Assembly: GCF_004010195.1 (NCBI RefSeq)
Contig: NC_057718.1
Location: 81,565,718-81,598,852 of the forward strand
Source: Chiloscyllium plagiosum
Lineage: Eukaryota
Reading direction: 5' to 3'
DNA length: 33,135 nt
Shown in pieces: positions 1 to 33,135 of the stretch (within the stretch, counting starts at the first letter, position 1; the number at the start of each line of letters is the position of its first letter). Both the position numbers and the translations under genes were made by a program. The notes beneath the pieces are model-generated. The model was not told the origin of the DNA. It searched no databases and worked only from the letters and a program-made list of their open reading frames with translations.

Positions 1-146
1 ACCCCCACCCTCCTCTAGCTTATCTCTTCACGCTTCAGGCTCACTGCCTTTATTCCTGATGAAGGGCTTTTGCCCGAAACGTCGATTTCAAAGCTCCTTA
101 GATGCTGCCTGAACTGCTGTGCTCTTCCAGCACCACTAATCCAGAG
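1..146 (+). mobile_element. Penelope-like element 3' terminal (pLTR) fragment
   Basis: C/T-rich tract, then an HHR motif, then the tail GATGCTGCCTGAACTGCTGTGCTCTTCCAGCA. The same tail occurs in the GIY-YIG-bearing PLE at 32624-33135. Confidence 0.8.
52..87 (+). ncRNA. Minimal type I hammerhead ribozyme motif (PLE-associated)
   Basis: CTGATGA (56-62), A, GGGC-TTTT-GCCC, GAAA (76-79), CGTC. ACGT palindrome at helix III; GUC cleavage triplet at 81-83. Confidence 0.8.
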
Positions 147-149
147 TTT

Positions 150-235
150 GAGGTGTCATGGTCTGACTCATTGTGGCAATGGAGATGGCTTTGGATGGTC
201 ATGTTGGAAAGGGAGTGGGAAGTGGAATTAAAATA
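150..235 (-). mobile_element. Inverted PLE GIY-YIG C-terminal fragment
   Basis: Minus strand reads YFNSTSHSLSNMTIQSHLHCHNESDH, homologous to the plus-strand copy at 266-339. Confidence 0.7.
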
Positions 236-247
236 GGAAAGTGAATA

Positions 248-745
248 CCTCCCAGTCACCACCCAATTTAAATCCCCCTCCCACTCCCTTTCCGACATGA
301 CCATCCTTGGCCTCCTCCATTGCCACAATGAGTCAGACCGCAAATTGGAGGCACAACATCTTACCTTCCACCTGTGCAGCTTACAGCCCAGAGGACTCAA
401 CACTGAATTCTCTAATTTCAAATAACCTTCCTTCCCATCGCCCAACTCCCTTCCCAGCCCCTCTCCCTCCATTTCATTCCTCTCATTGACCCTTCCTTCC
501 AGCTACCAACCGGATTCCTTCCTCCCATCGACCAACCAAGTCGTACCCTCTATCTGTGTTCACCTATCCTCACCTCACTACCCTGCTCCCCGCCACCCCC
601 TATATCTGCAGCTCCCCTTCCACTCACCCCTAGTCTTGAAGAAGGGTTACACCTGAACGTCAACTTCTCCACCTCCTGATGCTTCCTGGCTTGTTGTGTT
701 CTTCCACCCTCCTGTTTGTCTACCTTGGATTCCAGCTTCTACAGT
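248..745 (+). mobile_element. 5'-truncated Penelope-like element (GIY-YIG C-terminus, 3' region, degenerate HHR)
   Basis: Reads LPVTTQFKSPSHSLSDMTILGLLHCHNESDRKLEAQHLTFHLCSLQP, then a frameshift, then GLNTEFSNFK*. This aligns with the ORF at 32872-33099. It is followed by a C-rich tract and an HHR remnant. Confidence 0.8.
632..665 (+). ncRNA. Degenerate minimal hammerhead ribozyme motif
   Basis: agtc-TTGAAGA-A-GGGT-TAC-ACCT-GAA-CGTC-aact. C3 is mutated and one core A is lost. Helix I agtc/aact is consistent with CpG decay of agtc/gact. Confidence 0.6.
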
Positions 746-764
746 TTTGTTGTCACTAACCCAG

Positions 765-1279
765 GTCAGTGAGATCACAGGTGGGAGATCAGAATGAGGG
801 AAGCAAGATGACAGAGAGAGACAGTGGGATGACATTGTGGTAGCAATTGTACCCAAACATCTGAGACCATCACCATTTGAGAGTAGTTGCCATGGAGACA
901 CGAGACAGAAATCAGATGGAGTAATCTTAGGGTAATAATCTTGGGGAGAGATTGTGAGAAAAAGAAAACCTACAGTAGAAGATTGTGCCAAAGGCATTGC
1001 TGCAGAAAATCAGAGAGGAATGATTGTGGGCAAAGGAATTGTGCAGATTGAGATTGCATGGAGAAAGGTTCACAAATGAGAAATCTTGTAGGATTTGTGG
1101 TTGGAGGAGCTGAAGTGACCAGGAACAATTGGAGGACGTAGATTGCAGGAAGACATTGGGGAAAGACTGAGTCATCATGAAATCATTAGATATAGATCAA
1201 TGGGGGAGGCATTGTATTCCAGCATGTGACCAAACTGGGGTGACTGTGGGAGGGGAGGTAACTGGGTAAGAGGGCAGAC
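765..1279 (+). repeat. Purine-rich degenerate tandem repeat (GAGATCATGGGA..ACATTGTGG-like units); resumes at about 2180-2335
   Basis: Recurring gagatca, gagaccat, gacattgtgg and gagattgtg words; a similar array lies at 9560-9935. Confidence 0.5.
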
Positions 1280-2176
1280 TTGTGTTATCACCTTTTGAAG
1301 TGATGTTCCTGTCAGAAATCAACATGCAAATAAACAAAGTATCCAGATGTCATTGACTAGACTCAGGATTACAGGCTTGCTGTATTGTAGCAGTGTAAGA
1401 ACAGACTCGGCCTGGACATTTAGAAATCCTCCATTGCACACCATGTAAATGGAATTTAGATAATGTTAAGAATATTGCTTCAGGGTTCACAGCTGTTTTT
1501 TTCTTTAAATACAGAACAAAGGAAAAAACAACTTTTTGAGCTTAAAGATCAAAGGGAGAAGATGCTAAATAAAATATAACAGTGATCCAGAAGTTTCTCC
1601 AGAACACCAAAAATAAAATGTCTTCATAAACGTTCCAAGTTAATGCAGCAGTCAGCTGAGTCGAATCTGCCCTTTCTAAAAGTTATTCCAAACCTGATTG
1701 GCTATTGGGAGTCAGCCCTTTACTGAAGTAAGCTGAAGCACATCTAAATTCAAACAACAAAATCAAAGCAGGAACAATGCAGATCCATCAGAACGTGCCT
1801 AAAAATAAGTTTCAAACCAAAAGTAGAAAAGGATCACTGAGTACAGTTTTTAAAGCACAGAAGGATGGATACTTAAACCCCTTCCAACACCTCGCCCCAC
1901 CCCGCCCCACAAAATGTATTGGAATGCCTCAGATCTCCTATCTGAGTTCAAAACATTAAATAAAGGATGCAACTATGCTTCAAAGACCAAGCATTTGCAG
2001 AACTGGTTATGTATGCTGTGAAAAAACTGAATACTGTTAACAAGAGGTGACACACAATCAACAGCTCAGAACTAACTGAACAGAATCAGAACAACTCAAT
2101 AATGAAGTAGAAAATGCAAGGAGATCAGTTCACATTGAGCTCTTAAAAAGATATGATTGCAAAGTTGATAACACAA
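1280..2176. mobile_element. Inverted-repeat-bounded insertion (MITE or solo LTR)
   Basis: TTGTGTTATCACCTTTT at 1280-1296 matches the reverse complement of 2160-2176 (TTGTGTTATCAACTTTG) at 15/17. The A-rich interior interrupts the purine repeat. No clear TSD. Confidence 0.4.
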
Positions 2177-2339
2177 TAACTAGGTTGAGAGGTACTTGGG
2201 ACAGAATGGATTGTGGAGGAGAGATTACATGGAAGATCATGGGATGACATTGTGTTACTCATGTCACAGGTGAGTTATTTCACAGCAGAGATTGAGGGGG
2301 TATGGGGTAGAGAGATCTGATAGAAAATGTGTGGGGTGG

Positions 2340-3060
2340 GGACATAGAAGCAGGAATAGGTCATTTAGACCCTGGTCCTACCTTCCCCCTCCCCCACATT
2401 CACTGTGATCATGGCTCATTTGTGACAGGGCGGCACGGTGGCTCAGTAGTTAGCACTGCTGCCTCACAGCACCAGGTTCCCAGGTTCGATTCCAGCCTCG
2501 GGCAACTATCTGTGTGGAGTTTGCACACTCTCCCCGTGTCTGCGTGGGTTTCCTTTGGGTGCTCTGGTTTCCTCCCACAGTCCAAACATGTGCAGGTTAG
2601 GTGAATTGACTATGCTAAATTGCCCGTAGTGTTACGTGCATTAGTCAGGGGTAAATGTAGGGGAATGGGTCTGGGTGTCGGTGTGGACTTGTTGGGCCAA
2701 AGAGCCTGTTTCCACTCTCTAGGGAAACTAATCTTTGCCCCACATCTTTCAATACCTTTGGATGAAAATGTGTTTTGAACTCAGTTTTAAGGTTAACACT
2801 TAATGTATGATCAATTGATGTTTGTGGAAGAGAATTCTGGATTTCTACCACCTTTTACATTCAGACGTTTCTCTCCTACAATGTTTAAGTTTAATTTTTA
2901 GGCAATGTCCCATTCCTAGCCTCCTTACCAGTGTAATAGTTCCTTTCTAACACCCTTTATGTTCCCCATAGCATTGGGAAAACTTCATTCAAATTACCCT
3001 TTAACATCACCGAGAAAGCGTTCCTAGCTTCTGTCATTTTACCTTGAATTTAAGCCATGG
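2340..3060 (-). mobile_element. Old CR1-type LINE 3' end, split by an HE1 SINE
   Basis: Starts gacatagaagcaggaataggtcattta, resembling the CR1 3' end at 5853, and continues after the SINE. Confidence 0.55.
2428..2733 (+). mobile_element. HE1-like tRNA-derived V-SINE
   Basis: A box (TGGCTCAGTAG), B box (GGTTCGATTCC), V-domain (TGTGTGGAGTTTGCAC...GGTTTCCTCCCAC) and a CR1-like tail. Confidence 0.9.
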
Positions 3061-3501
3061 TGACTCTCACCCAGCTCTCCCACTATGGTGAATATATTGT
3101 TATTAAGGTTAGAACTGCTGACAGTACTCAAATCACTGTCAAAGCAGAGCACTGAATAGTGGAATCGTTCTAACTTATACTGCAGTCCTCCTGATATAAA
3201 AACCTCCTGATACAAAAGAATTGATTCAGTCTTTTTGTTTCGAATGGAACAAAATGCATTAAATGAGTGCTGCTTGTCTGCATTGTGAGAGAAACCAGGA
3301 ATTTGGTGAGTGAAGAGATCTTGAAGAGTAATCTGTCTCAATAGTCTTGTTTATATTTCACAATTAACTAAAAACTACAGTTTAAAAGTAAGTAGCTTTT
3401 TCCCAGTCTTAGACAAGAATTGTATTGTCTGAGAGCAACTGTCAAGCTGGATTCTGTGCTTCAGCAAAATTAACTCATTATTTTTCAAAAGGTAAAAGAG
3501 T

Positions 3502-3608
3502 AGGGCTATTGTGGTTCAGTGATCGTGACACTACCTCTGGGTCAGGAGATACAGGTTCAAGTTCCAATGGCTCACAATGTGTCTAAACAAGTTAATTAAA
3601 AAGTATCT
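3502..3608 (+). mobile_element. Short (~110 bp) tRNA-derived SINE, copy 1
   Basis: GTGGTTCAGTG A-box-like motif, CTACCTCTG, GGTTCAAGTTCC B-box-like motif; similar to 3636-3740 and 7143-7258. Confidence 0.55.
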
Positions 3609-3635
3609 AACTTTGAGAGTGATTGCAATTTTAGA

Positions 3636-3740
3636 AGAGTTCTTGTGGTGCGGTGGTAATGCTCCTACCTCTGGACAATGAAGCCCAGGTTCAAACCCGA
3701 CTCATTCTGCACACCTCTGAACAGGTTAGAAACATATCTA
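3636..3740 (+). mobile_element. Short (~105 bp) tRNA-derived SINE, copy 2
   Basis: GTGGTGCGGTGG, CCTACCTCTG, GGTTCAAACCC, and tail TCTGAACAGGTTAGAAACATATC. Confidence 0.6.
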
Positions 3741-3769
3741 GAAATGAAGGGCCTCTGAGTGCTGCCGAT

Positions 3770-4975
3770 CTGCACTAAATGTGAAGTCAGGAGTTTGGTG
3801 AGTGAGGAACTTTGGTGAAAAGGGTAATTATAAATTAAGAGAAAAATATGACTAACACAGTAAATGTGGCAGAATGGGTGATACTTCAACCATGTCTGTA
3901 ATTAATGTTTGTGGCTTGATCACTTCAGCTCAGAGTTCATGGGCTGCAGGACAAGCTTCTGGCTTTGTAATCGACCAGAGAGCTGAAGGTTCACTGGACA
4001 TTTTGTTCTTGAAGTTAGTTCAGTTAAGGCAGTCCTTTGGTTAACGTCATCTGATTTAGTCAGTGGCAGGGACAGTGAGGCAGATACGGGAATCAGGAAT
4101 AAGACAGTAAGATGTAGGAGCAGAAGAAGGCCATTTGGCCCATCAAGGCATCTAGATGGGCATATGAATAGAAAGGGTTTAGAGGGGTATGGGCCACATG
4201 CTTCAGCTGTAACATCTCACCCAACCTACCTTCTCTGTTGTATTTTGTTTAAGTATTTAAATTATTCAAGTATCTCTGTTGTATATACTTGAAGAATCCT
4301 TTTGTTTTTACATAAGAAGATGGAGCAGAGGAATCTTAACTATTATAACTGAGTTTGATGTTCTTGTAGCTTGTCAGGACAAGAAGTTGGCTATACTGTG
4401 GATGAACAGATTGAGCATAGCACTATGATACAGGACGATATCCAAGTTCAGGAGTGGGCAGGCATGTTAAAGGTGTGTAGTGCTAATTGGGGAACTGTGT
4501 AGTCAGGGCAATAGATACTGTTCTCTGAACCAGGGAGAATACAGAAGGTTGTGTTGCTGGCCCAGTGTCAGGGTTCAGGACATCAGCTTGGGGCTAGAGA
4601 GGAACCTGCACTGGATTGGGAAGATCAAGTTGTCATGGGTTACGGAGATAGCAGCAACCTAGAAAAGACTAACAAAATGGTTCTACATCGGGAGTACAAG
4701 GAGCATGACACTAAATTAATAAGGTTCAAAGGCAGTTGTCCCTGGATAATTACCCAAGCCACATTCAAATTAGTGTAAGGTAAATATGATTAGAGAGTCA
4801 CAAAAACTGGCACAGGAGAAGTAGGTTTCAGTTCAGTGACCTCTAGCACCAATACTGGGGAAAGTGGGGGGAGCTGTACCATTGGGATGTGCCTTCACCT
4901 GAATGGTGCTGGGCTAGTGTTCTAGCACATAATATAACTAGGAAAGTAGAAAGAGTTGTAAACTAAATAAGCATA
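3770..4975 (+). mobile_element. Decayed CR1 5' region / ORF1 (zinc finger-leucine zipper remnant and SGNH esterase domain)
   Basis: Frameshifted fragments VVLIG, RRLCCWPSVRVQDISLGLERNLHW, EDQVVMGYGDSSNLEKTNKMVLHREYKE and LHLNGAG match the esterase blocks of CR1 ORF1 (GDS, CLPGA, HVGTND, GLHL). Confidence 0.65.
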
Positions 4976-5852
4976 GCTGGCACTCCTGATCTCTAATCCT
5001 AGAAGACATTTAACACCACACCCCACACTTCACTTGTCCTTAGATACATTGTATTTAAAGACTCTCTTTGAGAGCAAGCAACTGTTTCCCCACACCCCAT
5101 TGGTTCACTCACATTTTCTTGTTGTCCAGCAGGAGAACATCAGTACAGGCATGAATTCAGACAACTCCAAACATAAGCTTTCATTTCTAGCTAGCAAAAG
5201 GGAACATTAAGGAAATGAGTCCAGGATACAGTTGCACCCACAATGCGAACCTAATGCTGCATCTTGACCTTGCCAGTCCATGATGATCTTCTGCTCATAG
5301 CTTCCATCTAATAGAAACCCTCCTCTTCCTCCATCCTCTCAGGTAAGTTCCTGCTGATACGTAGCCCATCTGTGTATCTATGCAAAAGAACTCATCAATA
5401 CGACAATACTAATAGCCTTTCTCTCTGGTTGAAGCATCAATATGCTAACTAACATGGGATGACAAGCATAGCATGGTATGGAAGCTGTGAGCCTGCAGAT
5501 AGATGCTCAGTGAGTGAATGCTACAAGAGCAAATGAGCAGCCATGAGATGCAGCCTAGTCCAATCTGTGCAATAGATCTGTATCTCTATGCACAAAGTAT
5601 CCTTTCAATGCTAAATTGCAATTGGACACAGCAGTGCGAGTTTGGGCTTCCAGACTGTCCTGCAAATGTGTTGGAGAAGTGTCTCAATGGTCACGAGAGG
5701 TTGGCAAGTTTCAGATTGCCATGTCCCTGGATGATAGAGTGCAAGAGTGTAACCATTGATCATGCCCTGAGATGCTGTTTGGTATTGAGCAGAATGGAGG
5801 CTTCTCAGCTAGTAGTGAGCCTGAAGTCACCAGTTACCCCATTGTGACATCC

Positions 5853-6335
5853 ATAAGACATAGGAGCAGAAATTAGACCATTCAGCCCTTTGAGTCTGTC
5901 CTGCCATTCAATCATGGCTGAGAAGTTTCTCAACCCCATTCTCCTGCTTTCTCCCTGTAACCCTTGATCCTCTTGATAATCAAGAACCTATCTTCATCTT
6001 AAATATATTCAATGACCTGGCTCCCACAACCTTCTGTGGCAGTGAATTCCATAGATTCACCATTCTCTGGCTGAAGAAGTTTCTACTTATCTCCTTTCTA
6101 AAAGGTCGTCCCTTACTCTAAGGCTGTGCCTTGGGTCCTAGTCTCTCCCAGCAATGGAAACATCTTACTAACATCCACTCTGTCCAGGCCATTCAGTATT
6201 CTGTAAGTTTCTATTAGGTTCCACCTCCCCCCCCCCCCCCCATACTTCTAAATTCCATCGAGTATAGACCCAGAGTCCTCAAACATTCCTGTTATATTAA
6301 GCTTTTCATTCCCGGGACCATTCTCGTGAATCTCC
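5853..6335 (-). mobile_element. 5'-truncated CR1-type LINE 3' end
   Basis: Begins cataagacataggagcagaaattagaccattcagccc. Includes the reverse complement of the ORF2 C-terminus (NFFSQRMVNLWNSLPQKVV). Confidence 0.85.
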
Positions 6336-6690
6336 GGCTGGAGATTTCTTTATATAGCTTGTTTGGTAGGACAGGAAGCTGAATATCAATGAAATGAATT
6401 GAGCTGTTAACAAAGTGTTTAACAATCTATAATCTATAACCCCCATAATTAGCAATTCTCTGCTGCCAAGCGAGGGACTTGGCATATCACTCGGCAAAAA
6501 TATAAAAGCATTACATTCCTGAGACTGAGCTAGGCCTTATCAGACTTCTCGTATGATTCTGACACAAATCTTGCCATCGCCAATATCATTCAGAGTTTCC
6601 ACCCATAAAGTAAGAATAAATCAGTCATTTTTAGGTTGGTAGGTTGTGAGCAGGAATATACTGCAAAAATCCATGGATGAGCTACTTATC

Positions 6691-6718
6691 CTGAAGAAGG
6701 GCTTATGCCCGAAACGTC
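6691..6718 (+). ncRNA. Minimal hammerhead ribozyme motif
   Basis: CTGAAGA-A-GGGC-TTAT-GCCC-GAAA-CGTC; the core is intact. Confidence 0.8.
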
Positions 6719-6815
6719 TATTCTCCTGCTTCTTGGATGCTGCCTGACCTGCTGCGTTTTTCCAGCAACACATTTTTCAGCTCTGATCTCCAGCATCTGC
6801 AGTCCTCACTTTCTC
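6691..6815 (+). mobile_element. 125-bp PLE-derived insert starting exactly at the HHR core, 9-bp TSD
   Basis: TSD CTACTTATC at 6682-6690 and 6816-6824. Confidence 0.85.
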
Positions 6816-8440: not shown

Positions 8441-8469
8441 AAGTGATGTGATAGTTATATAAAGGGAAA

Positions 8470-8872: not shown

Positions 8873-9020
8873 TTGTGTACAACAAGGGACTGGTTATTGT
8901 GTAAAACTTCAGGGGGTTTGACATGGAACTTAATGTATTGCAGAATGCATTGCATTGGAGAAAATTGAATGGCATTGCATTTCATATTCTGTTTGATAAT
9001 GTGTTCTTATAAATTTAGCA

Positions 9021-9338
9021 TTAGATTACTTACAGTGTGAAAACAGGCCCTTTGGCCCAACATGTCCACACCGACCCGCCAAAGCGCAACCCACCCAGAC
9101 CCATTCCCCTACATTTACCCCTTCACCTAACACTACAGGCAATTTAGCATGACCAATTCACCTAACCTGCACATTTTTGGACTGTGGGAGGAAACCGAAG
9201 CTCCCAGTGGAAACCCACACAGACACGGGGAGAATGTGCAAACTCCACACAGTCAGTCATCTGAGGTGGGAATTGAACCCAGGTCTCTGGCGCTGTGAGG
9301 CAGCAATGCTAACCACTGTGTCACCGTGCCGCCCACGG
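9021..9338 (-). mobile_element. HE1-like V-SINE
   Basis: Close reverse-complement match to 15705-16023. Confidence 0.92.
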
Positions 9339-9384
9339 GATATTATTGAAAAACAATTCCATGTTTAAAATATTTCTTCCTCAC

Positions 9385-13422: not shown

Positions 13423-14368
13423 GGTCATAGAGATGTATGGCACGGAAACAGACCCTTCAATTCAACTCGTCCATGCTGACCAGATATCTTAAATTAATCT
13501 CGTCCCATTTGCCAGCACGTAGACCATATCCCTCTAAATCCTTCCTATTCATGTACCCATCCAGATGTCTTTTAAATGTTGTAATTGTACCAGTCTCCAC
13601 CACTTCCTCTGGCAGCTTAATCCATACATGCACCACCTTTTGCATGAAAATGTTGCTCCTTAGGTCCCTTTTAAATCTTTCCCCTCTCACCTAAACATAT
13701 GCCCTAGCACTGGACTCCCCTAACCCAGGGAAAAGATCTTGTTTATTTACCCTATCCATGCCCCTCATGATTTTATAAACCTCTATAAGGAAACCCCTCA
13801 GCCTCCGAAGTTCCAGGGAAAACAGCCCCAGACTATTCAGCCTCTCCCTATAACTCAAACCCTCTAACCCTGGCAACAGCCTTATAAATCCTTTTTGAAT
13901 CCTTTCAAGTTTCACAACATCCTTCCTATAGGAGAGAGACCAGAATTGCACACAATATTCCAAAAGTGGCCTAACCAATGTCCTGTAGCAACATGATCTC
14001 CCAACACCTTTACTCAATGCTCTGACAAAAAGAGGAAAGCACACTAAAAGCTTTCGTCACTATTCTATCTACTTGAGACTCCACTTTCAAGGAACTATGA
14101 ACTTGCACTCCAAGGTCACTTTGTCCAGCAACACTCCCCAGGACCTTATCATTAAGTGTATAAGTACTGCACTGATTTGCCTTTCCAAAATGCAGCACCT
14201 CACATTTAGCTACATTAAACACCATCTGCCACTCCTCAGCTCATTGTCCCATCTGATCAAGATCATGTTGTACTCTGAGGTAACTTTCTTCGCAGTCCAC
14301 TAGCCTCCAATTTTGGTGTCATTTGCAAACTAACTCACCATACCTCCTATGTTTAAATCCAAATCATT
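13423..14368 (-). mobile_element. CR1/HER1 LINE copy A, 3' part
   Basis: ORFs 13457-14225: KCEVLHFG, TLVRPLLEYCVQFWS, VWIKLPEEVVETGTITTFKRHLD; CR1 3' terminus. Confidence 0.93.
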
Positions 14369-16352
14369 GAGTCATAGAGATATACAGCATGGAAACAGAC
14401 CCTTTGGTCCACGCCGACCAGATATCACAACGCAATCTAATCCCACCTGCCAGCACCCAGCCCATATCCCTCCAAACCCTTCCTATTCATTTACCCATCA
14501 AAATGCCTCTTAAATGTTGCAATTGTACCAGCCTCCACCACTTCATCTGGCAGCTCATTCCATACATGTACCACCCTCTGTGTGATAAAGTTGCCCCTTA
14601 GGTCTTTTTTATATCTTTCCCCTCTCACCCTAAACCTATTCCCTCTAGTTCTGGACTCCCCGACCCCAGGGAAAATACTTTGCCTATTTACCATATCCAT
14701 GTCCCTCATAATTTTGTAAACCTCTGTAAGGTCACTGCTCAGCCTCCAAAGCTCCAGGGAAAACAGTTACCAGCTTCTTCAACCTCTCCCTATAGCTCAA
14801 ATCCTCCAACCCTGGCAACATCCTTGTAAATCTTTTCTGAACCCTTTCAAGTTTCACAACATCTTTCCGATAGGAAGGAGACCAGAATTGCATGCAATAT
14901 TCCAACAGTGGCCTAACTAATGTTCTGTACAGCTGCAAACATGACCTCCCAACTCGTGTACTCAATATTCTGACCAATAAAAGAATACATACTAAACACC
15001 TTCTTCACTATCCTATCTACCTGTGACTCCACTTTCAAGGAATTATAAACCTGCACTCCAAGGTCTCTTTGTTCAGCAACACTCCCTAGGACCTTACCAT
15101 TAAGTGTATACGTCCTGCTAAGATTTGCTTTCCCAAAATGCAGCACCTCGCATTTATCTGAATTAAACTCCATCTGCCACTTCTCAGCCCATTGGCCCAT
15201 CTGGTCAAGATCCTGTTGTTATCTGAGATAACCCTCTTTGCTGTCCACTACACCTCCAATTTTGGTGTCATCTGCAAACTTACTAACTGTACCTCTTATG
15301 CTCGCATCCAAATCAATTATGTAAAAGTAGAGGACCCAGCACCAATCCTTGCAGCACTCCACTGGTCACAGGCCTCCCGTCTGAAAAACAACCCTCCACC
15401 ACCACCCTCTGTCTTCTACCTTTGAGCCAGTTCTGTATCCAAATGGCTAGTTCTCCCTGTATTCCAAGAAATCTAAGTTTGCTAATCAGTCTCTCATGGG
15501 GAACCTTGTCGAACGCCTTACTAAAGTCCATATAGATCACATTTACCGCTCTGCCCTCATCAATCCTCTTTGTTACTTCTTCAAAAAACTCAATCAAGTT
15601 TGTGAGACATGATTTCCCATGTACAAAGCCATGTTGACTATCCCTAATCAGTCCTTGCCTTTCTAAATACATGTACATCCTGTCCCTCAGGATTCCCTCC
15701 AACACCGTGGGCGGCACGGTGGCACAGTGGTTAGCACTGCTGCCTCACAGCGCCAGAGACCCGGGTTCAATTCCCGCCTCAGGCGACTGACTGTGTGGAG
15801 TTTGCACGTTCTCCCTGTGTCTGCGTGGGTTTCCTCTGGGTGCTCCGGTTTCCTCCCACAGTCCAAAGATGTGCACGGCCAGGTGAATTGGCCATACTAA
15901 ATTGCCCGTAGTGTTAGGTAAGGGGTAAATGTAGGGGTATGGGTGGGTTTCGCTTCGGCGGGTCGGTGTGGACATGTTGGGCCGAAGGGCCTGTTTCCAC
16001 ACTGTAATGTAATCTAAAAAAAAACTTGCCCACCACCAAGGTCAGACTCACTGGTCTATAGTTCCCTGGCTTGTCCTTACCACCCCTCTTAAACAGTGGC
16101 ACCATGTTTGCCAACCTCCAGTCTTCCGGCACCTCACCTGTGATGATCGATGATACAAATATCTCAGCAAGAGGCCCAGCAATCCCTCTCTAGCTTCCCA
16201 CAGAGTTCTCGGGTACATCTGATTAGGGGCTGGGGATTTATCCACCTTTACTCATTTCAAGACATCCAGCATTCCCTCCTCTGTAATCTGGACATTTTGC
16301 AAGATGTCACCATCTATTTCCTGACAGTCTATATTTTCCATATCCTTTTCCA
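14369..16352 (-). mobile_element. CR1/HER1 LINE copy B nested in copy A
   Basis: PEDWRLANMVPLFK..NYRPVSLT, QHGF..KSCLTNL, YMDFSKAFDKVPH, SGVLQGLVLGP; possible 4-bp TSD CATT (14365-14368 and 16353-16356). Confidence 0.93.
15705..16023 (+). mobile_element. Young HE1-like V-SINE nested in CR1 copy B
   Basis: Intact A and B boxes, CpG-rich, A tail. It splits CCCTCCAACA|ACTTGCC, which is contiguous in copy A near 16725-16740. Confidence 0.95.
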
Positions 16353-16965
16353 CATTTATACAAATGACGAAAAATACTAATCCATGTGGCACAGCATTGG
16401 TCACAGGCCTCAGTCTGAAAAGCAACCCTTCACCAGCAACCTTTGTCTCTTACCTGCAAGCCAGTTATGCATTTGAATGGATAGTTCTCCCTGTATTCTA
16501 TGTGAGCTTGCTACCCAATCTATCATGAGGAACCTTGTCGAATGCCTTACTAAAGTCCATATAGATCACATCCACCGTTCTGCCCTTATCAAGCCTCTTT
16601 GTTAGCTCTTCAAAAACCTCAATCAAGTTCGTGAGACATGGTTTCCCACGCACAAAGCCATGTTGACTATCCCTAATCAGTCATTGCCTTCCAAATACAT
16701 GTCAATCATGTCCCTCAGGATTCCCTCCAACAACTTGCCTGCCACTGATATCAGGCTCACCGGTCTATAGTTCCCTGGTTTTTCCTTATCACCTTTCTTA
16801 AATAGTGGCTAGAAACTCCAGTCTTCCAGCACCTCACCTGTGGCTATCGATGATCCAAAAGTCTCAGCAAGGGGCCCAGCAATCTAGGATTCTAAGGTAC
16901 ACCTGATGACATCCCAGGGATTTATCCATCTTTGTGCATTTAAGACATCCAGCATCACCACCTTT
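16353..16965 (-). mobile_element. CR1/HER1 LINE copy A, 5' part
   Basis: Resumes the RT where 14368 stops and parallels copy B at 15310-16275. Confidence 0.88.
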
Positions 16966-17331: not shown

Positions 17332-17414
17332 GGTGGGTATGGTTTCATCTTGCTGGACCCTCATGTATAGAATTCCCTCTTTCAATGAATTCTTTGCATT
17401 AAGATCAAATGACA

Positions 17415-18861: not shown

Positions 18862-19126
18862 TCTGTTCCACCCTTTTCTCCCACCTATCACTTTCACTCC
18901 CACCTTCATCTACCTATCGCATTCCCAGCTACCTTCCCCCACAAGCCCCACCCCCTCCCATTTATCTCTCAGCCCCCTTGACCCACAAACCTTATTCCAG
19001 ATGAAGGGCTTATGCCCGAAAGGTCGATTCTCCTGCTCCTCGGATACTGCCTGACTGGCTGTGCTTTTCCAGCACCAAACTCTTCAACTCTGATCTCCAG
19101 CAGCTGCAGTCCTTACTTTCTCCTAA
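18862..19126 (+). mobile_element. 265-bp PLE 3' insert with HHR, 13-bp TSD
   Basis: TSD TTGACAATTATTA at 18849-18861 and 19127-19139. The 3' end matches the insert at 6691. Confidence 0.88.
18994..19029 (+). ncRNA. Hammerhead motif with core mutations
   Basis: CAGATGA-A-GGGC-TTAT-GCCC-GAAA-GGTC; U4 is changed to A and the palindrome is broken. Confidence 0.65.
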
Positions 19127-20835: not shown

Positions 20836-21210
20836 AATGGGTTGGGCTTAATGTCCAGCATTAGTTGGACAACCAGTGGTAGCCCCATGTCACTTCTGTG
20901 GCCCAGTACAATTAGCCAGCATTGCCACTGGTGACAAAAAAAAACATCCTGACATTTTTGTTTTCAGCTTACAGTCTGAGTCAATTTCAGAATCCACAGG
21001 CTAGAGTTGGTCAGATTGACAACAGCTAGCTGATATTATGGGTCAATTCATAGGCAAGGGTATAGATGCTAACTTAGCTGATAGGTTTATGGAATTGCTG
21101 ATTGCTTCTGCACCCAACAGATTTTTCAGAAAAGCAATTGTAGACAAATGCACAGAATATACCATCGATGCTCTTCCAGAAGAATGCAAGTTTGAACCAA
21201 TTGCAATAGG

Positions 21211-21308
21211 GCTCGAAAGGTGCGGCACTGAAAAAGCACAGCAGGTCGGGCAGCATCCAGGGAGCAGGAGAGTCGATGTTTCAGGCTAAGCCCTTCATCA
21301 GGAATGTG
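21211..21308 (-). mobile_element. 98-bp PLE-derived HHR insert in Gypsy gag, 13-bp TSD
   Basis: TSD CAATTGCAATAGG at 21198-21210 and 21309-21321. Confidence 0.9.
21271..21305 (-). ncRNA. Minimal hammerhead ribozyme motif
   Basis: attc-CTGATGA-A-GGGC-TTA-GCCT-GAAA-CATC-gact; the differences from the consensus are mostly CpG-type changes. Confidence 0.7.
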
Positions 21309-21664
21309 CAATTGCAATAGGCCAGCAGTACCTACAAGTGCTGGACACTGAATCAATTATGGCAGCTGTCAAACAATTCAGGGAAAATCCAGATCTTGTA
21401 TTAGATGTGGCTTGTCTCACTCACGAGGACAGTATCCAATATTTTGTGACACAATGTAAGCTATGTTCCACAAGAGGATACTGGAATAAAATGTGTCGGA
21501 AGTGCATCTGCCCAGAGAAACCCGAAGTACAAGAGAATGTTCCACAGCAGTGCGTGAAGATCCAACCAAGGAAAGCTGCCAAAACTCCACCAATGACAAA
21601 TTAGCAGGTTAGTGAAATCAAAGAAGTAACCGTAATGTTTCAGCTTGCAGAACCATGGTTAATG

Positions 21665-22005
21665 AGGTGACCTGGTGGCTCATGGTTAGCACTGCTGCCT
21701 CACAGCACCAGGGACCCAGGTTCGATTCCATCCTTGGGCGACTGCCTGTGTGGAGTTTGCATGTTCTCCCCATGTCTGTGTGAATTTCTTGCAGGTGCTC
21801 CAGTTTCCTCCCACAGTCCAAAGATGTGCAGGTTGTGAGGAATGGTCATGCTAGATTGCTCATCATGTCCAGGGATTTGCATGCTGGGTGGGTTAGCAAT
21901 GGGAAACATGGGGCTATGTGGTTACGCGAGGATGTTCTTTAGAGGGTCGGTGCGGTCTTGATGGGCCAAAGGGCCTCTTTCCACATTTTAAGGAATTCTA
22001 TGAAC
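21665..22005 (+). mobile_element. Older HE1-like V-SINE inserted in Gypsy
   Basis: GGTTAGCACTGCTGCCTCACAGC, GGTTCGATTCC B box, V-domain and CR1-like tail. Confidence 0.88.
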
Positions 22006-24430: not shown

Positions 24431-24750
24431 TTTTTTTTAAAGATTAGATTACTTACAGTGTGGAAACAGGCCCTTCGGCCCAATAAGTTCACACCGACCC
24501 GCCAAAGCGCAACCCATCCAGACCCATTTCCCTACATTTACCCCCTCACCTACTGGCAATTTAGCATGGCCAACTCACCTAACCTGCACTTTTTGGACAG
24601 AGGGAGGAGACTGGAGCACCCGGAGGAAACCCATGCAGACATGGGGAGAACGTACAAACTCCACACAATCAGTCGCCTGAGGCGGGAATTGAACCCGGGT
24701 CTCTGACGCTGTGAGGCAGCAGTGCTAACCACTGTGCCACCGTGCTGCCC
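24431..24750 (-). mobile_element. HE1-like V-SINE with A tail and TSD
   Basis: Full-length reversed copy; TSD GTGAAT at 24425-24430 and 24751-24756. Confidence 0.93.
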
Positions 24751-25586: not shown

Positions 25587-26858
25587 TTTTTTTTTTAATT
25601 CATTGTTGGATGTAGGCATCGCTGGCTAGCCAGCATTGATAGCCCATCTCTATTTGCCCTTGAGAAGGTGGTGGTGCCTTCTTGAATCGCTGCAGTCCAC
25701 TCGCTGTGGGTTAACCCATAATGCCATTAGGGAGGGAATTCCAGGATTTTGACCGAACAACTGTAAAGGAATGGTAGTATATTTCCAAGTCAGGGTGGTG
25801 AGTGGCTTGGAGGGGAACTTGCAGGTGGTGGTGTTCCCAAGTACCTGCTGCCCTTGTTGTTTTAGGTGGAAGTGGTCGTGGGTTTGGAAGGTGCAGTCGA
25901 AGGATCTTTGGTGAATTTCTGCAGTGCATCTTGTAAATAGTACACACTGCTGCTACTGAGTGCCAGTGGTGGAGGGATTGAATGTTTGTAGATGTGGTGC
26001 CTATCAAGTGGGTTGCTTTGTCCTGGATGGTGTCAAGCTTCTTGAGTGTTATTGGAGCTGCACCCATCCAGGCAGGTGGAGTGTATTCCACCACACTACT
26101 TGTGCCTGTAGATGGTGGATAGACTTTGGGGTATCAGGAGGTGAGTTACTCGCCGCAGTATCCCGAGTCTCTGACCTGCTCTTGTAGCCACTGTGTTTAT
26201 TTGGTGAGTCCAGTTGAGCTTCTGGTCAATGGTAACCCCAAGGATGTTGACAGTAGGGGGTTCAGTGATGGTAAAGCATCGAATGTCAAGGGGCAGTGGT
26301 TAGAGTGTCTCTTATTGGTGATGGTCGTCGTCTGGCATTTGTGTGACGCAAATGTTACTTGCCACTTGTCGGCCCAAGCCTGGATATTGTCCAGCTCTTG
26401 TTGCATTTGAGCACGGACTGCTTCAGTATCTGAGGGGTTGCAAATGGTGCTGAACACTGTGCAATCATTAGCGAACATTCCCACTTCTGACCTTATGACA
26501 GAGGGAAGGTCATTAATGAAGCAGCTGAAGATTGTTGGGCCTGGGACACGCCCCTGAGGGAATCCTCGAGAGATGTCGTGGAGCTGAGATGACTGTGCCT
26601 CCACAACCACAACTATCTTCCTTTCTGCCAGGTATGACTGTAACCTGTGAAATGTTTACCCCCATACCCATTGATTCCAGTTTTGCCAGGGCTCCTTGAT
26701 GCCATACTCGGTCAAATGGGGCCTTGATGTCAAGGGCTGTCACTCTCACCTCACCACTGGAATTCAGCTCTTTTGTCCATGTTTGAACCAAGGCTGTAAT
26801 TAAATCAAGAGCTAAGTGAGCCTGGCAAACCCCAAACTGGGTGTCACTGAGCAGGTTG
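25587..26858 (-). mobile_element. 5'-truncated LINE of the CR1/L2 group (family distinct from HER1)
   Basis: QFG, ALDIKAPFDRVWHQG, PQGRVPGPTIFSCFINDL, MFANDC (FADD-like) and KSWNSLP; poly(A) end seen as a T-run at 25587-25596. Confidence 0.88.
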
Positions 26859-27126
26859 TGGGCTGTGGTCTCCTGGAATGAGAGACAAGGATGAATGAAG
26901 GGAGATGAAACTGGCTGCACAGCTGTTAGTGCTGGTGCAGGTGAGGGAAAAGTGGTTGGTGTTCCCAAGTGATGAGTAGGCTGCACAGAGGGCATGCAAG
27001 ATTAATGGCAGAGACTTAAGGGAATTGGTAAAAGTGAGTGAAAGAGAGAGTGGGAAGAATATAAGACTTGTTAAGCTTGACTGTTTCAATTATGAGGAGG
27101 GGTTCTACACTACATTGCAGCCTCAG

Positions 27127-27830
27127 ATTCTTTTCATTTCAAAAACATACCTTATTCATAAAATATCTGTTTGTATACATAAATAGTCACAAACGCAGTT
27201 CAATTCTGTGCAGTTATATATCAAAGAAAAAAACAAACATTGGAGTTTGATCCTATCCAAAAACCAAAGACCTCTCTTACACAAACAAGACAAAATTTAC
27301 ATATATTTGAGGCAGTAGGTCCAATAACTAAGAATCCACCCCACTCCCCCCCCCCCCACTCCCCCCCCCAAAACAGGAATATTTCAGATGGTTGTCTTTT
27401 CCCAACGTACCTTGACAGCAGCTGCCCCAAGCTTTAGTGTGTCCCTCAGCACATAGTCCTGGAACTTAGAATGTGCCAGTCTGCAACACTCAGGTCAAGG
27501 TCAGCTCCTTGCTCTGGAAGCAACAAGTTTCAGAAAGATCAAAGAGTGTCATTCACTGAGGTGATGGTCCACCAGGCACAGTAGATGTTTGTCTCAGTGT
27601 ACATCCCAGGCAACAAATCGTACACCATAGACTCCCACATCACAAAGCTAGCTGCTCGGGACAAACCTCGACAAAAACCACTGCACCTCTCTTCAGACAC
27701 AAAGACACATTCCAACAGATGTAAGACAGTGTCAAACCCCCACAGCTGCTCCAAAGTTACATGAAGGATCTCACAGGTGCCCATCTCACCACCAGCCAAG
27801 CAATGTTTTGGTGTTTTCTGGAAATTTACA
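27127..27830 (-). mobile_element. Tx1/L1-type LINE 3' end
   Basis: ORF2 C-terminus DTVLHLLECVF, YTETNIYCAWWTITSVNDTL and CCRLAHSKFQDYVLRDTLKLGAAA, followed by a G-rich 3' UTR. Confidence 0.75.
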
Positions 27831-27901
27831 ATGCTACCTGTAGTGGTTAACAATCACACAACACCAGGTTATAGTCCAACAGGTTTAATTGGAAGCACAC
27901 T

Positions 27902-28198
27902 ATTACGTGTGGGAACACCTCCCACCTTGTACATGGCAGGTACTCATGTGACTCAGCCAACGTTGTCTATCTTATATGTTGCAGGCAAGGATGCCCAGAG
28001 GCATGGCACATTGGGGAAACCGAGCAAAGGCTACAACAACGGATGAATGGGCACCGCACAACAATCAACAGACAGGAGGGTTCCCTCCCAGTTGGGGAAC
28101 ACTTCAGTGGTCCAGGACATTCAGCCTCGGACCTTCGGGTGACCATCCTCCAAGGTGGACTTCGGGACAGGCAGCAGAGAAAAGTGGCCGAGCAGAGG
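27902..28198 (+). pseudogene. PLE GIY-YIG endonuclease fragment
   Basis: Open frame ...YSCDSANVVYLICCRQGCPEAWHIGETEQRLQQRMNGH...VGEHF...VAEQR (VVY / HIG / R / E motifs); it runs into the gap. Confidence 0.88.
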
Positions 28199-28549
28199 NN
28201 NNNNNNNNNNNNNNNNNNNNNNNNNNNNNNNNNNNNNNNNNNNNNNNNNNNNNNNNNNNNNNNNNNNNNNNNNNNNNNNNNNNNNNNNNNNNNNNNNNNN
28301 NNNNNNNNNNNNNNNNNNNNNNNNNNNNNNNNNNNNNNNNNNNNNNNNNNNNNNNNNNNNNNNNNNNNNNNNNNNNNNNNNNNNNNNNNNNNNNNNNNNN
28401 NNNNNNNNNNNNNNNNNNNNNNNNNNNNNNNNNNNNNNNNNNNNNNNNNNNNNNNNNNNNNNNNNNNNNNNNNNNNNNNNNNNNNNNNNNNNNNNNNNNN
28501 NNNNNNNNNNNNNNNNNNNNNNNNNNNNNNNNNNNNNNNNNNNNNNNNN
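28199..28549. other. Assembly gap (351 N)
   Basis: Run of N. Confidence 1.
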
Positions 28550-28717
28550 TTTTAAAAAAAGGGTTTTGTGATTTACACATGAAAGAAGTGAAACTATCAC
28601 TGTATTCTAACAGATGAAAGGCTTAACAGACAATCAATTCTTCAATGTATAATTTCAGTTACATCACACTGCAAATTTTTGCTATAGATTCTGTGTTACG
28701 ATCGAGCCCTCCACAAT

Positions 28718-28752
28718 CACCTGATGAAGGAGCGTCGCTCTGAAAGCTGGTG
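28718..28752 (+). ncRNA. Minimal hammerhead ribozyme motif, distinct family
   Basis: cac-CTGATGA-A-GGAGC-GTC-GCTCT-GAAA-GCTG-gtg. AGCT palindrome; helix I cac/gtg; the triplet is CUG here, probably from CUA. Confidence 0.75.
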
Positions 28753-28859
28753 TGCTTCCAATTAAACCTGTTGGACTATAACCCGGTGTTGTGTGATTTT
28801 TAACTTTGTACACCCCAGTCCAACACCGGCATCTCCGAATCATGACCTGTAGTGGTGCA

Positions 28860-29200
28860 TGTGACACGTGTTGTACAGTCTGAGTATCCATCAGTATGAC
28901 ATATTGTACAGTCTGAGTTTGTATTTGTATGTATCTCAGTTGTGATGCTGCTTGTATTCACATATGGGTGATGAAAAATGTACAGTCTGATATTGCACTG
29001 TTACAATTATCGTGTGTCTGTGATATACAGTCTGACACATGGCAGTACATGGGAGTTATGAAATTGCCTGTACTGGTATAGTCTGAGTTACAATGAGGTC
29101 TGTGTTGATATGTGTAATTTATAGTGCTGCCTCTATCTGTACATGTGACGCACAGTCTGAATTAGCACATATCGTATAGGTGTATGTACAGCTGAATCCC
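28860..29200 (+). repeat. Degenerate minisatellite with recurring (TGT)ACAGTCTGA
   Basis: The motif recurs near 28875, 28906, 28980, 29027, 29079 and 29152. Confidence 0.6.
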
Positions 29201-29489
29201 AATGTAAAACTTGCATATAGAGATAATCTCGCTCCATGTCTCATTTTAATGTTTGAATGCATGGCTGGGACTCCTGTTTAACTTGTAGTGTTCAAGCATT
29301 TCCTTTCTGGAGGCACTTTTAGATTTGATTTTATACCAACGGGAACCATATTGATTCCAGTATAATAATCCAAGTAGACTATCTATTTTACATGGTGTCA
29401 CACCTCTTGACTTTGAGCCACCATAGACAACAAATAAAAACTTCTCTACCCTCCTCAACTCCTGAGCTTTACTTTCGGTCTTCCTTTGA

Positions 29490-29710
29490 CAGAACTAGTG
29501 GAGAGAGTTCACTTGGGTGTCCTTGCCAGATTCTTCCCACATTGACACTAACAGCAGCTGAACTGGTCATTATCTCTTGGCGGGTTACTATGTGCAAAAT
29601 TGCTTGCTGCTTTCTTACATGACTACACCTCAAAAAGTACTTCAATTATGCGAAGCAATTTGGGATGCCTGAGGTCAGAAAGTGTGCTTTATAGACTGTA
29701 AGCTTTTCTG
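29490..29710 (+). mobile_element. Decayed SacSINE1/Deu-SINE-like 3' half
   Basis: ggtgtccttgcca..ctggtcattatc..tgtgcaaaattg..gactacacctcaaaaagtacttca..tttgggatgcctgaggtc. Confidence 0.65.
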
Positions 29711-29904
29711 TCTCACAGGAAATTCAAACCCTTCCTCGTTTTGACTCAACCACTATGTCCAGCATTTTCTGCTTTTGCTTCATATTCTTGGCAAATGTTG
29801 GATGTTCTTCCCTTCATCCCACATCCTTTTGTTGTTGTTTTATTTGATTTAATCCTGTAGTCTTTTCTTTGCATGTGTGGAGAGAGAGCCATTGTTTTAT
29901 TTAC

Positions 29905-30102
29905 TTTTAGCTTAGGGTCATAAAATAGTTTCTTTTGCTCGACTTGTTTTCTCAAGGTCATGGAAGGCAGCTCTTTAAGCAGGTTGTCATGGAGATGCAC
30001 AGATGGTTGTGAGGGGTCTTCCCACAGAGGACACTTTTTGGCCAGGTACAATTTGGCATGGGTCAAGTAATAGCAGCCAGAACTCCCATTGACTGGTAAT
30101 AT
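29905..30102 (-). CDS. Candidate 198-nt coding exon of unidentified host gene
   Basis: Strong acceptor ttatttcagcttcctttccag; donor AAA|GTAAAT. It encodes 66 codons in phase 0-0 (ILPVNGSSGCYY...KLFYDPKLK); the other two frames contain stops. Confidence 0.45.
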
Positions 30103-31074
30103 CTGGAAAGGAAGCTGAAATAATGAACAGAGCAGAACCAATTGAAACAAAATAAGGATTTATTTAAACAGTGAACCAAGCACAGAATGCAGGAGAACCT
30201 AAAGGTTTTCTCACATCGGTGAAGAAGATTAATAAAGGATAGAATGTTAGTGATGTGACATCTAACCCAGCCACTTGTGTATAAAACTGAGAGAAAAATA
30301 CATGTCAGGAAGAACTTGAAGCCTTGGGCAATTCTCAGCGACTGATGTTGATTTGACTGAGCTGTGTGCATCCAGTGTCCTTCACTCAATGGAGACAAAA
30401 GATGGAAGCTGTCAGAACAAATAAGCATTAGCTAAACAGAACAGAAATATTGTTGCTGTTCATATGTTTTTAGGGAGGTGAATATGCATGAAGTATCTGC
30501 AATTAACTTAGGGAGTAAGTTCCCAATCCTTCAGAATTTCCCTCCTGACTAGTCTCCAAATCACTCTCTATTGAGTAAAATCATGGTGGAGTTCAATAAT
30601 TTTGTTTCTTTTGAGTCTTGATTTACTTGCTATGAAAAAATTGGATAGGATGAGAAGGCAATTTGGCTGTCAGTCAAGAATCATCCAATTAGGTAACAAA
30701 GAGTCTACTGCTTTTCCATGAGCATTGGAAGGTGATGGCTTTGTGGGGACAAATATATCAGGCAATCAATGCTAGGAGTATTGAATGGGATCGTTACAGG
30801 TAGGAGCCATGTGATAACACCTCCAGGAACATGTCCAATACGAATTGGCAAACCTATCATGGAGGAGAAAGTGTTTGAATTTGAACTCCTGTTTGAGGAT
30901 TTCCCCTAGCACAGTGACATGGGACATTTTTAATATCTGTCCACAGCGCATTATGAAGGTACGTAGTACCCGCTGCTAATAATTGGAGTCATTGTGACTG
31001 CCCTGCTATACATGATGTCCAATAAAACCAAAGTAACTCTCTTTAAGATCTCTCCTAACTCTTAACATCTACAC

Positions 31075-31157
31075 CAAGGATCTCTTCGTTATGTTTTGAC
31101 ATATGTCTGGGGCAGGTGGGACTTGAAGCCAGACGTTCTGACCCATAAGGTAGGGTT
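31075..31157 (-). mobile_element. Short tRNA-derived SINE, partial copy 4
   Basis: gcaggtgggacttgaagcc..aggtaggg parallels 7190-7232. Confidence 0.45.
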
Positions 31158-31159
31158 AG

Positions 31160-31286
31160 GCTCAGCGAAAGAAAACTCATAACAGACTCAATCCATTAAC
31201 TTTCTCTTTCCACAGATGATGTCAGACCTACTGATAATATTCTCTTTGTATTTCAGATTTCCAGCATCCACAGTATCTTGTTTTTA
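31160..31286 (+). mobile_element. Old PLE 3' tail with eroded HHR
   Basis: cagatgatgtcagacctactg...tttcagatttccagcatccacagt follows the PLE tail layout. Confidence 0.5.
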
Positions 31287-31719
31287 CTGGATGTAAGCCT
31301 TATCCTGAAATTGGACCTCATTCACTTTGTCTTTTGTATATGAGCAGATCCTCGCCATTCATCAAATGGATTAGTTGTCCCACAGGTTCTAACATGTTAG
31401 TATCATGTATGCTTTAACCGAGTGAATATTAAGTCTGAGAAAGATTCACATCTCTTAATTCAAGAATCTCCTTTGAATTCAAATATGCTCAATTCAAATA
31501 ATCTGCTTACACAAATTGAAACTGTGTGAAATAAACTTCCTGTAGTATTTTATTAGAATTGTTTAATTGCACTACTGGATAATTAAAATCTTCTTTCTTC
31601 AGTAACATTCACCTTTAATGAACAGGAGAAAATTGTATTTCAATTTATACTAGTGACACAATACGCTGCATTTTACAGAACTTAAAACACAAATTGTATT
31701 TGTTTCAGATGGAAAAAAT

Positions 31720-31930
31720 TTATTGGGAATTCAATGGAGAAGACTGAAGAATTCTCTGACTCAAAACATTTTCATAGCAGAATTAGTTAACACTTTTAAG
31801 CAGAAATTAGTTAATTTTAAAAGAAGAATATTAAACCAAGTATTTGGAACAGACAGGAATTGGCATGCAGGAAAGTATTAAGGACAGACTTGTTGGATTG
31901 AATGAGTTATGGCTGTATTGTAACATTAAA
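31720..31930 (+). mobile_element. Very old CR1-type 3' end
   Basis: NSLTQNIFIAELVNTFKQKL resembles the CR1 ORF2 terminus and is followed by a tail-like sequence. Confidence 0.4.
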
Positions 31931-32049
31931 TGACATCGAATATTCATCAATAAGGAGATGCAAAAGATATTGATAAGGAAATGACGACTTTTTGGCTTAT
32001 TTCTATGCAGTTGCATTTTGTGGAGGAAAGAATCACAGGAATAGACCTT

Positions 32050-32620
32050 GAGTAGATGTTAGCTATAGTTCAGTGGTAACCTCTTTGAAGCAGAAAGTTA
32101 CAGTTTAATTTTCATTACAGAGACTTAACCACAGAGTCTATACTGACACCCAGTAAAAGTAAGGGAATCATAGAATCCCTATGGTGTGGAAGCAGGCCAT
32201 TTGGCCCATCAAGTTCACACTGACCCTCTGAAAAACATCTCACTTACTCTACCCTATTCCTGTAATGATGCATTTTCCATGGCTTATGCACCTAGCCTAC
32301 ACATCCCTCGACACAATGGGCAATTTAGCATAGCCAATCCACCTAACCTGTACGTCTTTGGACCATGGGAAGGCACCAGGGGATACTCATATAGAAAGAG
32401 GCAGAATGTGCAAACCCCACACAGACAATTGCACAAGAATGGAATCGAACCCAGGTCCCTGCCGCTGTGAAGCAGCACTCTTAATAACTGAGCAACCATG
32501 CCACTCTAAACTTCTGGAATGCTATATTTTGGATGAGCTGCCTGTTCTCACAAAGGTCTATTGGATTATATGGCACAAATCAAATAATAGCAGGGAAGTT
32601 GCCCTGGTGTCCTCTTTATA
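32050..32620 (+). mobile_element. Decayed Deu-SINE-like element split by an HE1 SINE and cut by a PLE
   Basis: 5' gttcagtggtaac..cagagactt..ctgacacccagt resumes at 32507 with tttggatgag..atggcac..gcagggaagttgccctggtgtcct. Confidence 0.5.
32165..32506 (-). mobile_element. Diverged HE1-like V-SINE
   Basis: Reversed B box GGAATCGAACC, V-domain and tail catagaatccctatggtgtggaagcaggcc. Confidence 0.85.
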
Positions 32621-32623
32621 ATC

Positions 32624-33135
32624 TGAGCTGAAAATGTGTTACTGGAAAAGCGCAGCAGGTCAGGCAGCATCCAGGGAACAGGAGAATCGACGTTTCGGGC
32701 ATAAGCCCTTCTTCAGGAATGAGGAAAGTTTGTCCAGCTGGCTAAGATAAAAGGTAGGGAGTAGGGACTTGGGGGAGGGTCGTCGGAAATGTGATAGGTG
32801 GAAAGAGGTCAAGGTGAGGGTGATAGGTCAGACTGGGGTGGGAGCGGAGAGGTCGGGAAGAAGATTGCAGGTTAGGAAGGCGGTGCTGAATTCGATGGAA
32901 TTGACTGAGACAAGGTGGGGGGAGGGGAAATGAGGAAACTGGTGAAATCCGAGTTCATCCCTTGTGGTTGGAGGGTTCCTAGGCGGAAGATGAGGCGCTC
33001 TTCCTCCAACCGTCGTGTTGTTGTGGTCAGGCGATGGAGGAGTCCAAAGACCTGCATATCCTTGGTGGAGAGGGAGGGGGAGTTGAAGTGTTGAGCCACA
33101 GGGTGGTTGGGTTGGTTAGTCCGGGTGTCCCAGAG
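32624..33135 (-). mobile_element. Penelope-like element 3' part (GIY-YIG C-terminus and HHR); runs off the window
   Basis: ORF 32872-33099 VAQHFNSPS..RRLEEERLIFRLGTLQPQGMNSDF, then a C-rich tract, the HHR and the PLE tail. Confidence 0.88.
32685..32720 (-). ncRNA. Minimal hammerhead ribozyme motif
   Basis: attc-CTGAAGA-A-GGGC-TTAT-GCCC-GAAA-CGTC-gatt; the core is intact. Confidence 0.82.

Follow-up and report, generated by a model that had tools for sequence, protein, structure and literature searches.

Minimal hammerhead ribozymes in Penelope-like element stubs of Chiloscyllium plagiosum and their likely action as dimers in the parent element

We analyzed a 33,135-nt stretch of the Chiloscyllium plagiosum genome (GCF_004010195.1, contig NC_057718.1, positions 81,565,718 to 81,598,852, forward strand; hereafter the window), in which an earlier note, made from the letters alone, had described seven minimal hammerhead ribozyme motifs. 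Each of the motifs is a minimal type I hammerhead belonging to the terminal repeat of a Penelope-like element (PLE); three PLE families are represented, mostly by broken insertion stubs. Taken as a whole, the evidence makes it highly probable that they are the terminal-repeat hammerheads of PLEs, left behind as stubs and likely to have cut as dimers in the active parent element.

Seven hammerhead motifs from three families

All seven motifs were found where the earlier note had placed them, as was the AGCT at 28745-28748. Five of them satisfied a strict pattern comprising the core and a 4-bp helix II, whereas 300 first-order Markov controls averaged 0.01 such hits and never exceeded 1; the motifs exceed chance. 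Rfam covariance models run against the window returned no hammerhead family match up to an E-value of 5, and weak Rfam microRNA matches at 193-306 were rejected as an inverted repeat of the family B element. Five motifs belong to family A, one to family B and one to family C, so the window offers three independent examples and not seven.

The conserved core (CUGANGA, one base, helix II, GAAA, NUH) is present at the family level, with G10.1-C11.1 closing helix II in the family majorities, and is retained by four of the seven window copies (56, 6691, 21275 and 32689). The copies at 56, 6691 and 32689 had been described as intact. This holds for 56 and 32689, the only fully intact motifs in the window, but not for 6691, in which G1.1 is replaced by U and the first helix I pair is broken. 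Hammerheads follow the NUH rule at the cleavage site, and copy 28721 departs from the core at H17 alone: it has G at position 17, versus A in 911 of 1,030 family C RNA reads. Copy 636 carries four lesions relative to its family (C3 to U, one A of GAAA missing, and two further changes). Helix III is a self-complementary four-base sequence in five of the seven copies; the two that are not palindromic are 21275, with ACAU, which fits CpG decay, and 18998, with AGGU and a U4-to-A change as well.

The claimed covariation of stem II and helix I stands in part. Both helices vary between families while pairing is kept, but ACCT, GCTCT and aact in the window copies fit CpG decay, with other family members showing ACCC, GCTCC and gac in their place. 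Helix I consists of two pairs, a U-U mismatch and one pair in family A (four pairs in one subfamily), and of three pairs in families B and C.

The PLE-derived features of the window, including pseudo-long terminal repeats (pLTRs), are as follows.

1..147, + strand: family A PLE 3' stub with an intact minimal hammerhead at 56-83 (ACGU, C17 at 83); its 5' side enters the assembly gap left of the window.
148..760, + strand: family B PLE end with an endonuclease C-terminal remnant, a pLTR and the broken hammerhead 636-661; outer limits approximate.
160-237: inverted piece of the family B PLE end, mirror of 262-339.
6689..6815, + strand: family A stub starting at the 5' edge of hammerhead 6691-6718, with core and ACGU intact and the first helix I pair broken; 9-bp target-site duplication.
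18862..19126, + strand: family A stub with the broken hammerhead 18998-19025 (U4 to A, AGGU); 13-bp target-site duplication.
21211..21308, - strand: family A stub starting at the 5' edge of hammerhead 21275-21301 (ACAU); 13-bp target-site duplication.
27846-28844: family C inverted unit, a single insertion enclosed by a 10-bp target-site duplication.
27846..27902, - strand: an eighth piece, an inverted family C tail without ribozyme core, forming the left arm of insertion 27846-28844.
27896..28198, + strand: fragment of the family C endonuclease (GIY-YIG), with an N gap behind it at 28199-28549.
28721..28749, + strand: family C minimal hammerhead with AGCU at 28745-28748 and G at position 17 (family base A).
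28761..28781, + strand: family C poly(A) signal ATTAAA at 28761-28766, with poly(A) addition sites at 28778 and 28781 from family RNA reads.
32621..33135, - strand: family A PLE end with an endonuclease C-terminal fragment (32875-33135), a pLTR, the intact hammerhead 32689-32716 and a tail.

Beyond the gap to the right of the window lies another family A copy in the opposite orientation (L023:1218-1245).

Penelope-like origin of the motifs

The assignment of the motifs to PLEs was borne out by endonuclease sequence upstream, by target-site duplications of 9-13 bp around four window insertions, by the presence of inverted twins, and by agreement with the published features of minimal hammerheads. 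Among all sampled loci, 33 family A and 14 family C copies (a few of these being non-partners) are preceded on their own strand by endonuclease coding sequence, and reverse transcriptase (RT) motifs lie further upstream. For the frame 27875-28198, the top two look-alike rows were GIY-YIG endonucleases, with scores of 0.96 and 0.95 (Pfam share 33% and 20%). The pLTR thus follows an RT and GIY-YIG frame, as seen through broken frames only. A CX2-5CxxC zinc-finger linker between RT and endonuclease was observed at locus L023 for family A and at L015 and L016 for family C; PMC8557442 gives this linker as the defining feature of the Neptune clade, common to Nematis too. Families A and C, with a linker of the Neptune type, are putative members of that clade.

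Six families were encountered in all: A, B, C, D1, D2 and E. Families D1 and D2 (L122:2191-2980, L062, L066) have a long helix II starting with ATG, like the Poseidon element PAc. At L050:4800-6900, a tandem array of 66-nt units stands directly upstream of a family A endonuclease fragment, with all three frames open for more than 700 codons.

A four-base palindrome and a fold that closes as a dimer

The dimeric fold that had been proposed for these motifs held up, being the sole fold that closes helix III. Its computed energy was -14.1 kcal/mol for one site, versus -5.2 kcal/mol for the monomer, in which helix III is unclosable. The active parent element is likely to cut only after two copies have paired by way of the four-base palindrome.

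In families A, B, D1, D2 and E the middle of the palindrome is CG, which is their commonest or undecayed state beside CpG-decay variants; in family C it is GC. This GC was present in 30 of 33 and 18 of 21 sampled family C copies, and AGCU in 98 of 100 among the matches listed. The ACGT-to-AGCT switch, which the earlier note took as evidence of selection for dimeric cleavage, is indeed family-wide and self-complementary. As evidence it is weaker than supposed: A15.1 and U16.1, two of the four palindrome bases, are an invariant core pair, so the difference amounts to one dinucleotide and one event, and a random change from CG stays self-complementary in 3 of 15 cases (20%). A search for further families with AT or TA palindromes returned 17,635 matches versus 5,968 for its control; among the matches listed, the recognisable rows belonged to families already known and mostly carried TA, in keeping with double CpG decay. 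A repeat combining the core with AGAT lacks helix II and was rejected as LINE (long interspersed element) RT coding sequence by its look.

Better evidence, of constraint, came from the comparison of five family A subfamilies, in which the only variable ribozyme columns were N7 and three loop II bases (four in all; P about 0.0002-0.0007). This constraint acts between source lineages and covers the whole catalytic core, not the palindrome alone.

About half of the mapped copies begin at the 5' edge of the ribozyme

We mapped the 5' ends of copies against linear references, counting positions from the cut site. The first family A set of 150 copies was reduced to 121 by leaving out 17 that met gaps or edges and 12 that did not align; the hold-out set of 102 copies lost 11 and kept 91. 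Starts fell at -36..-21, the 5' edge of the ribozyme, in 69 of 121 copies and in 44 of 91 hold-out copies (together 113/212), and in 23 of 57 family C copies, where the edge recurs despite unrelated upstream sequence. The edge was shared by solo copies (26/58). It was sharp among 57 young copies: the mode was -31 with 11 starts, three lay at -32, six in all at -33..-40, and one at the cut. Genome-wide counts told the same story, falling from 65,563 cores to 14,661 with ten upstream bases and 9,926 with ten more, although the core of the third pattern is shorter and differences between subfamilies blur the counts.

The cut site itself did not stand out clearly as a start. Family A starts at -3..+3 numbered 12 of 212, no denser than those elsewhere inside the ribozyme (26/212 over 17 nt). 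Five of the 212 began exactly at the cut, versus about 1.5 expected, and several of these are explained by microhomology. A pattern for cut-site starts gave 266 genome-wide matches, about 55 of the 100 listed being true starts, which corresponds to about 1% or less of young copies. At the other end, copies stop in two clusters, at about +68 and +105 in family A and about +60 and +98 in family C.

At 32720 (position -32), the depth of the RNA reads mapped to copy 32689 dropped from 860 to 193. Loose ends at this point numbered 151; 93% continue into unlike sequence, indicating read-through of many copies. Run X20 had no RNA reads mapped to the 32689 stretch.

A poly(A) site behind the family C ribozyme

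Among 2,686 reads mapped to 28600-28860, 321 enter an A run after 28778 and 398 after 28781 (719 in total), which places poly(A) addition in family C 29 and 32 nt past the cut site of an uncut ribozyme. These reads come from one sample, of which 2% of the run was read. Genomic family C copies carry a hexamer 12-17 nt behind the cut, ATTAAA in 23 of 51 and AATAAA in 22 of 51, followed by a GT-rich stretch, and a genomic A run stands at the poly(A) site in none of the 51. About 1,000 reads cross the family C cut site uncut; they differ by several variants and hence stem from more than one locus. The family C signal alternates between two canonical hexamers, is used in RNA and exists in tens of thousands of copies. 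Family C stubs seem to provide cellular RNA with functional poly(A) sites, and the signal may end many host transcripts. In family A, one subfamily has AATAAA at +49 in 11 of 12 copies; in the other families no signal turned up within 70 nt.

A proposed layout of the element and competing accounts

Together, the 5' pile-up and the family C poly(A) site suggest a short terminal repeat, similar to a long terminal repeat (LTR), with run-off cDNA. The element RNA would start about 31-32 nt before the cut site, and reverse transcription would begin in the tail, 60-105 nt behind it. If RT often ran off the 5' end of uncut RNA, stubs and inverted twins would result, and nearly every insertion would carry the motif. 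Long copies would then have to come from a jump to the 3' repeat or from a circle made by cutting and ligation; in either case the palindrome would be what joins the two terminal ribozymes.

A more specific, retrovirus-like form of this layout is tentative. It places the RNA start at about -32 and the family C poly(A) site at about +30, so that the hammerhead would lie in a 60-nt repeat at both RNA ends, with reverse transcription starting beyond the repeat at the 5' copy only. The first cDNA would be a strong-stop piece, mostly inserted as is, alone or as inverted twins, giving roughly a million stubs, while full copies would jump to the 3' repeat and the palindromic dimer would clasp, or cut and ligate, both ends. 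Such a set of RNA ends would, if true, explain how the element copies itself.

Several observations weigh against this account and its PLE setting. The transcription start at about -32 is deduced from DNA ends only, and microhomology near the ribozyme 5' edge could favour joints there. The poly(A) reads may be host RNAs that end in stubs, which could explain them all, and the first 70 nt of most family A, D or E tails hold no poly(A) signal. Neither RNA-read mapping, to copy 32689 or to family C, showed molecule starts or ends piled at the cut site, which is limited evidence since short cut products of about 30 nt would be lost in such a library. A Pfam scan of both window endonuclease fragments gave no match. 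A search for an intact full-length PLE found none: the seven long frames fetched all proved to be N gaps or tandem repeat. Tandem copies as the source of a dimer are therefore an assumption.

The strongest competing account, which we judge somewhat improbable, is that cutting is routine and cut-and-ligated circles are the main template, with stubs arising from early termination and from microhomology joints at the ribozyme 5' edge. Lineage constraint on every catalytic base is consistent with it, as are the exact cut-site starts noted above and the joints of inverted pairs, where 2-3 shared bases are often seen close to an imperfect palindrome at -31..-24; a circle model has also been proposed (PMC4209133). 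Paired copies, however, have no edge that solo copies lack, the edge is sharp in young copies and recurs in family C over unrelated upstream sequence, and starts around the cut are no denser than at other positions inside the ribozyme. Uncut RNA was moreover the dominant template in vitro for the element studied in PMC11167929.

It is unlikely that the palindrome was kept for another reason, as an internal promoter element or for RNA pairing without cutting. Family A has an initiator-like sequence at -32, which would suit a promoter; with a start at -32, bases +28..+32 misfit the downstream-element consensus. ACGT was accordingly rejected as a downstream promoter element, its spacing not fitting. 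The internal promoter of D. virilis Penelope does contain a downstream element RGACGTGY (PMC2377424), and hammerhead mutants did not impair insertion in vitro (PMC11167929), but family C has AGCT and the conserved part is the whole catalytic core, not only the palindrome. For such hammerheads, weak cleavage has been reported for dimers and none for monomers (PMC4209133).

Genome-wide load and fate of the inserted copies

We searched the 3.56-Gb genome assembly for the motifs. A generic core pattern gave 378,500 matches, versus 22,856 for the reversed control, leaving about 355,000 above control; the exact family A 28-mer matched 34,833 times and the family C pattern 19,814 times. When the tail alone was searched for, 98 arbitrary 10-kb stretches yielded 252 copies and another 60 yielded 177. 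This amounts to one per 3.5 kb, so the density of the window is average. Scaled to the genome, it would give about a million copies, an estimate drawn only from large contigs.

Close neighbours are seldom in tandem. Same-family copies within 500 bp formed 90 tail-out inverted pairs (51 + 39) and 7 tandem pairs (6 + 1) among 429 copies, and about 40% of the stubs (180/429) are members of such twins (L025-L042, L069-L148, L159-L218). Because they lie on opposite strands, close neighbours form no dimer within one transcript, and dispersed copies rarely have a same-RNA partner. Many twins are perfect-looking hairpins of 100-250 nt, and longer ones often hold assembly gaps. The window has no head-to-tail tandem array with a hammerhead in each unit.

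Inserted copies decay neutrally. In family A, non-CpG mismatches affect 55 of 840 core positions (6.5%) and 182 of 2,856 tail positions (6.4%; P 0.87), and the palindrome CpG is kept in 43 of 84 copies versus 48 of 84 for the tail CpG (P 0.54). Core and palindrome thus decay at tail rates in 84 family A copies, the usable part of 150 and a choice that favours intact cores, and likewise in 21 family C copies, with no sign of purifying selection after insertion. The very large hammerhead reservoir that had been predicted is therefore very large in number, but copies that decay like their flanks are no reservoir under selection. That the dispersed copies are working ribozymes kept by host selection to cut host RNAs as dimers is very improbable: although the excess of core matches is great, copies are present in RNA and 28 of the 84 family A copies reaching C3 retain core, palindrome and helix II, the neutral decay, the scarcity of tandem neighbours and the reads spanning an uncut family C site all stand against it. 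A few domesticated copies may exist beyond the 1.5 Mb sampled.

Neighbouring repeats in the window

On the + strand at 21020-21604, open frames of 89-104 aa are interrupted by the 21275 stub; the one scanned had no Pfam match. LINE RT fragments occupy 13431-16884 and 25714-27001 (Pfam RVT_1 at 15316-15744 and 26200-26655) and contain internal duplications of about 940, 1030 and 700 nt. A short interspersed element (SINE)-like repeat, which we presume to resemble the shark HE1 SINE, is present in six copies on both strands (2428-2721, 9020-9338, 15705-16007, 21683-21996, 24439-24750 and 32176-32507).

Comparison with known systems

The motif, the dimer idea and the CG, GC, UA and AU variants of the palindrome (Fig. 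S3) are already published for metazoan PLEs (Cervera and De la Pena 2014, PMC4209133). The minimal hammerheads described there lie in pLTRs and share with ours the core CUGANGA, the unpaired base 9.1, G10.1-C11.1, GAAA, a palindromic 15.2-16.2, a short helix I and several families per genome; like the present copies, they are mostly single truncated copies or opposite-strand pairs. The one supplement file searched had no shark entry. Top vertebrate counts in that work are about 9,000 (Xenopus) and about 4,000 (coelacanth), obtained with a stricter descriptor and so not directly comparable with our approximately 355,000. The set described here is far larger than the published counts found, and the RNA ends of the element can be read from its fossils. 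Lunse, Weinberg and Breaker (RNA Biol 14:1499), going by the title and a paraphrase in a review (PMC6765202), describe the same dimer mechanism for small PLE hammerheads.

Non-LTR retrozymes (bioRxiv 10.64898/2026.07.22.740005) also carry type I hammerheads from PLE pLTRs, in a cartilaginous fish among others; they form tandem arrays, whereas the present copies are solo or inverted. In the literature searched, with subscription papers and Repbase outside its scope, we found no report of shark PLE hammerheads, of the 5' pile-up or of poly(A) addition behind the ribozyme.

The closest functional parallel is the PAc element of the green anole (Frangieh et al. 2024, PMC11167929). In PAc, reverse transcription begins internally, at two positions past the ribozyme, which agrees with the two clusters of 3' ends in families A and C; its main template is uncut RNA, and its cleavage needs protein. 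PAc is a Poseidon element, in contrast to the Neptune-type linker of families A and C, and the parts of its account available to us report neither a 5'-end pile-up at the ribozyme nor a poly(A) site behind it. What the present analysis adds to these systems is that about half of the mapped copies start at the 5' edge of the ribozyme and that family C has a poly(A) site just behind it. The role of the PLE hammerhead has been called unclear (PMC8557442); an RNA start immediately ahead of it and polyadenylation immediately behind it provide a concrete, testable layout for that role.

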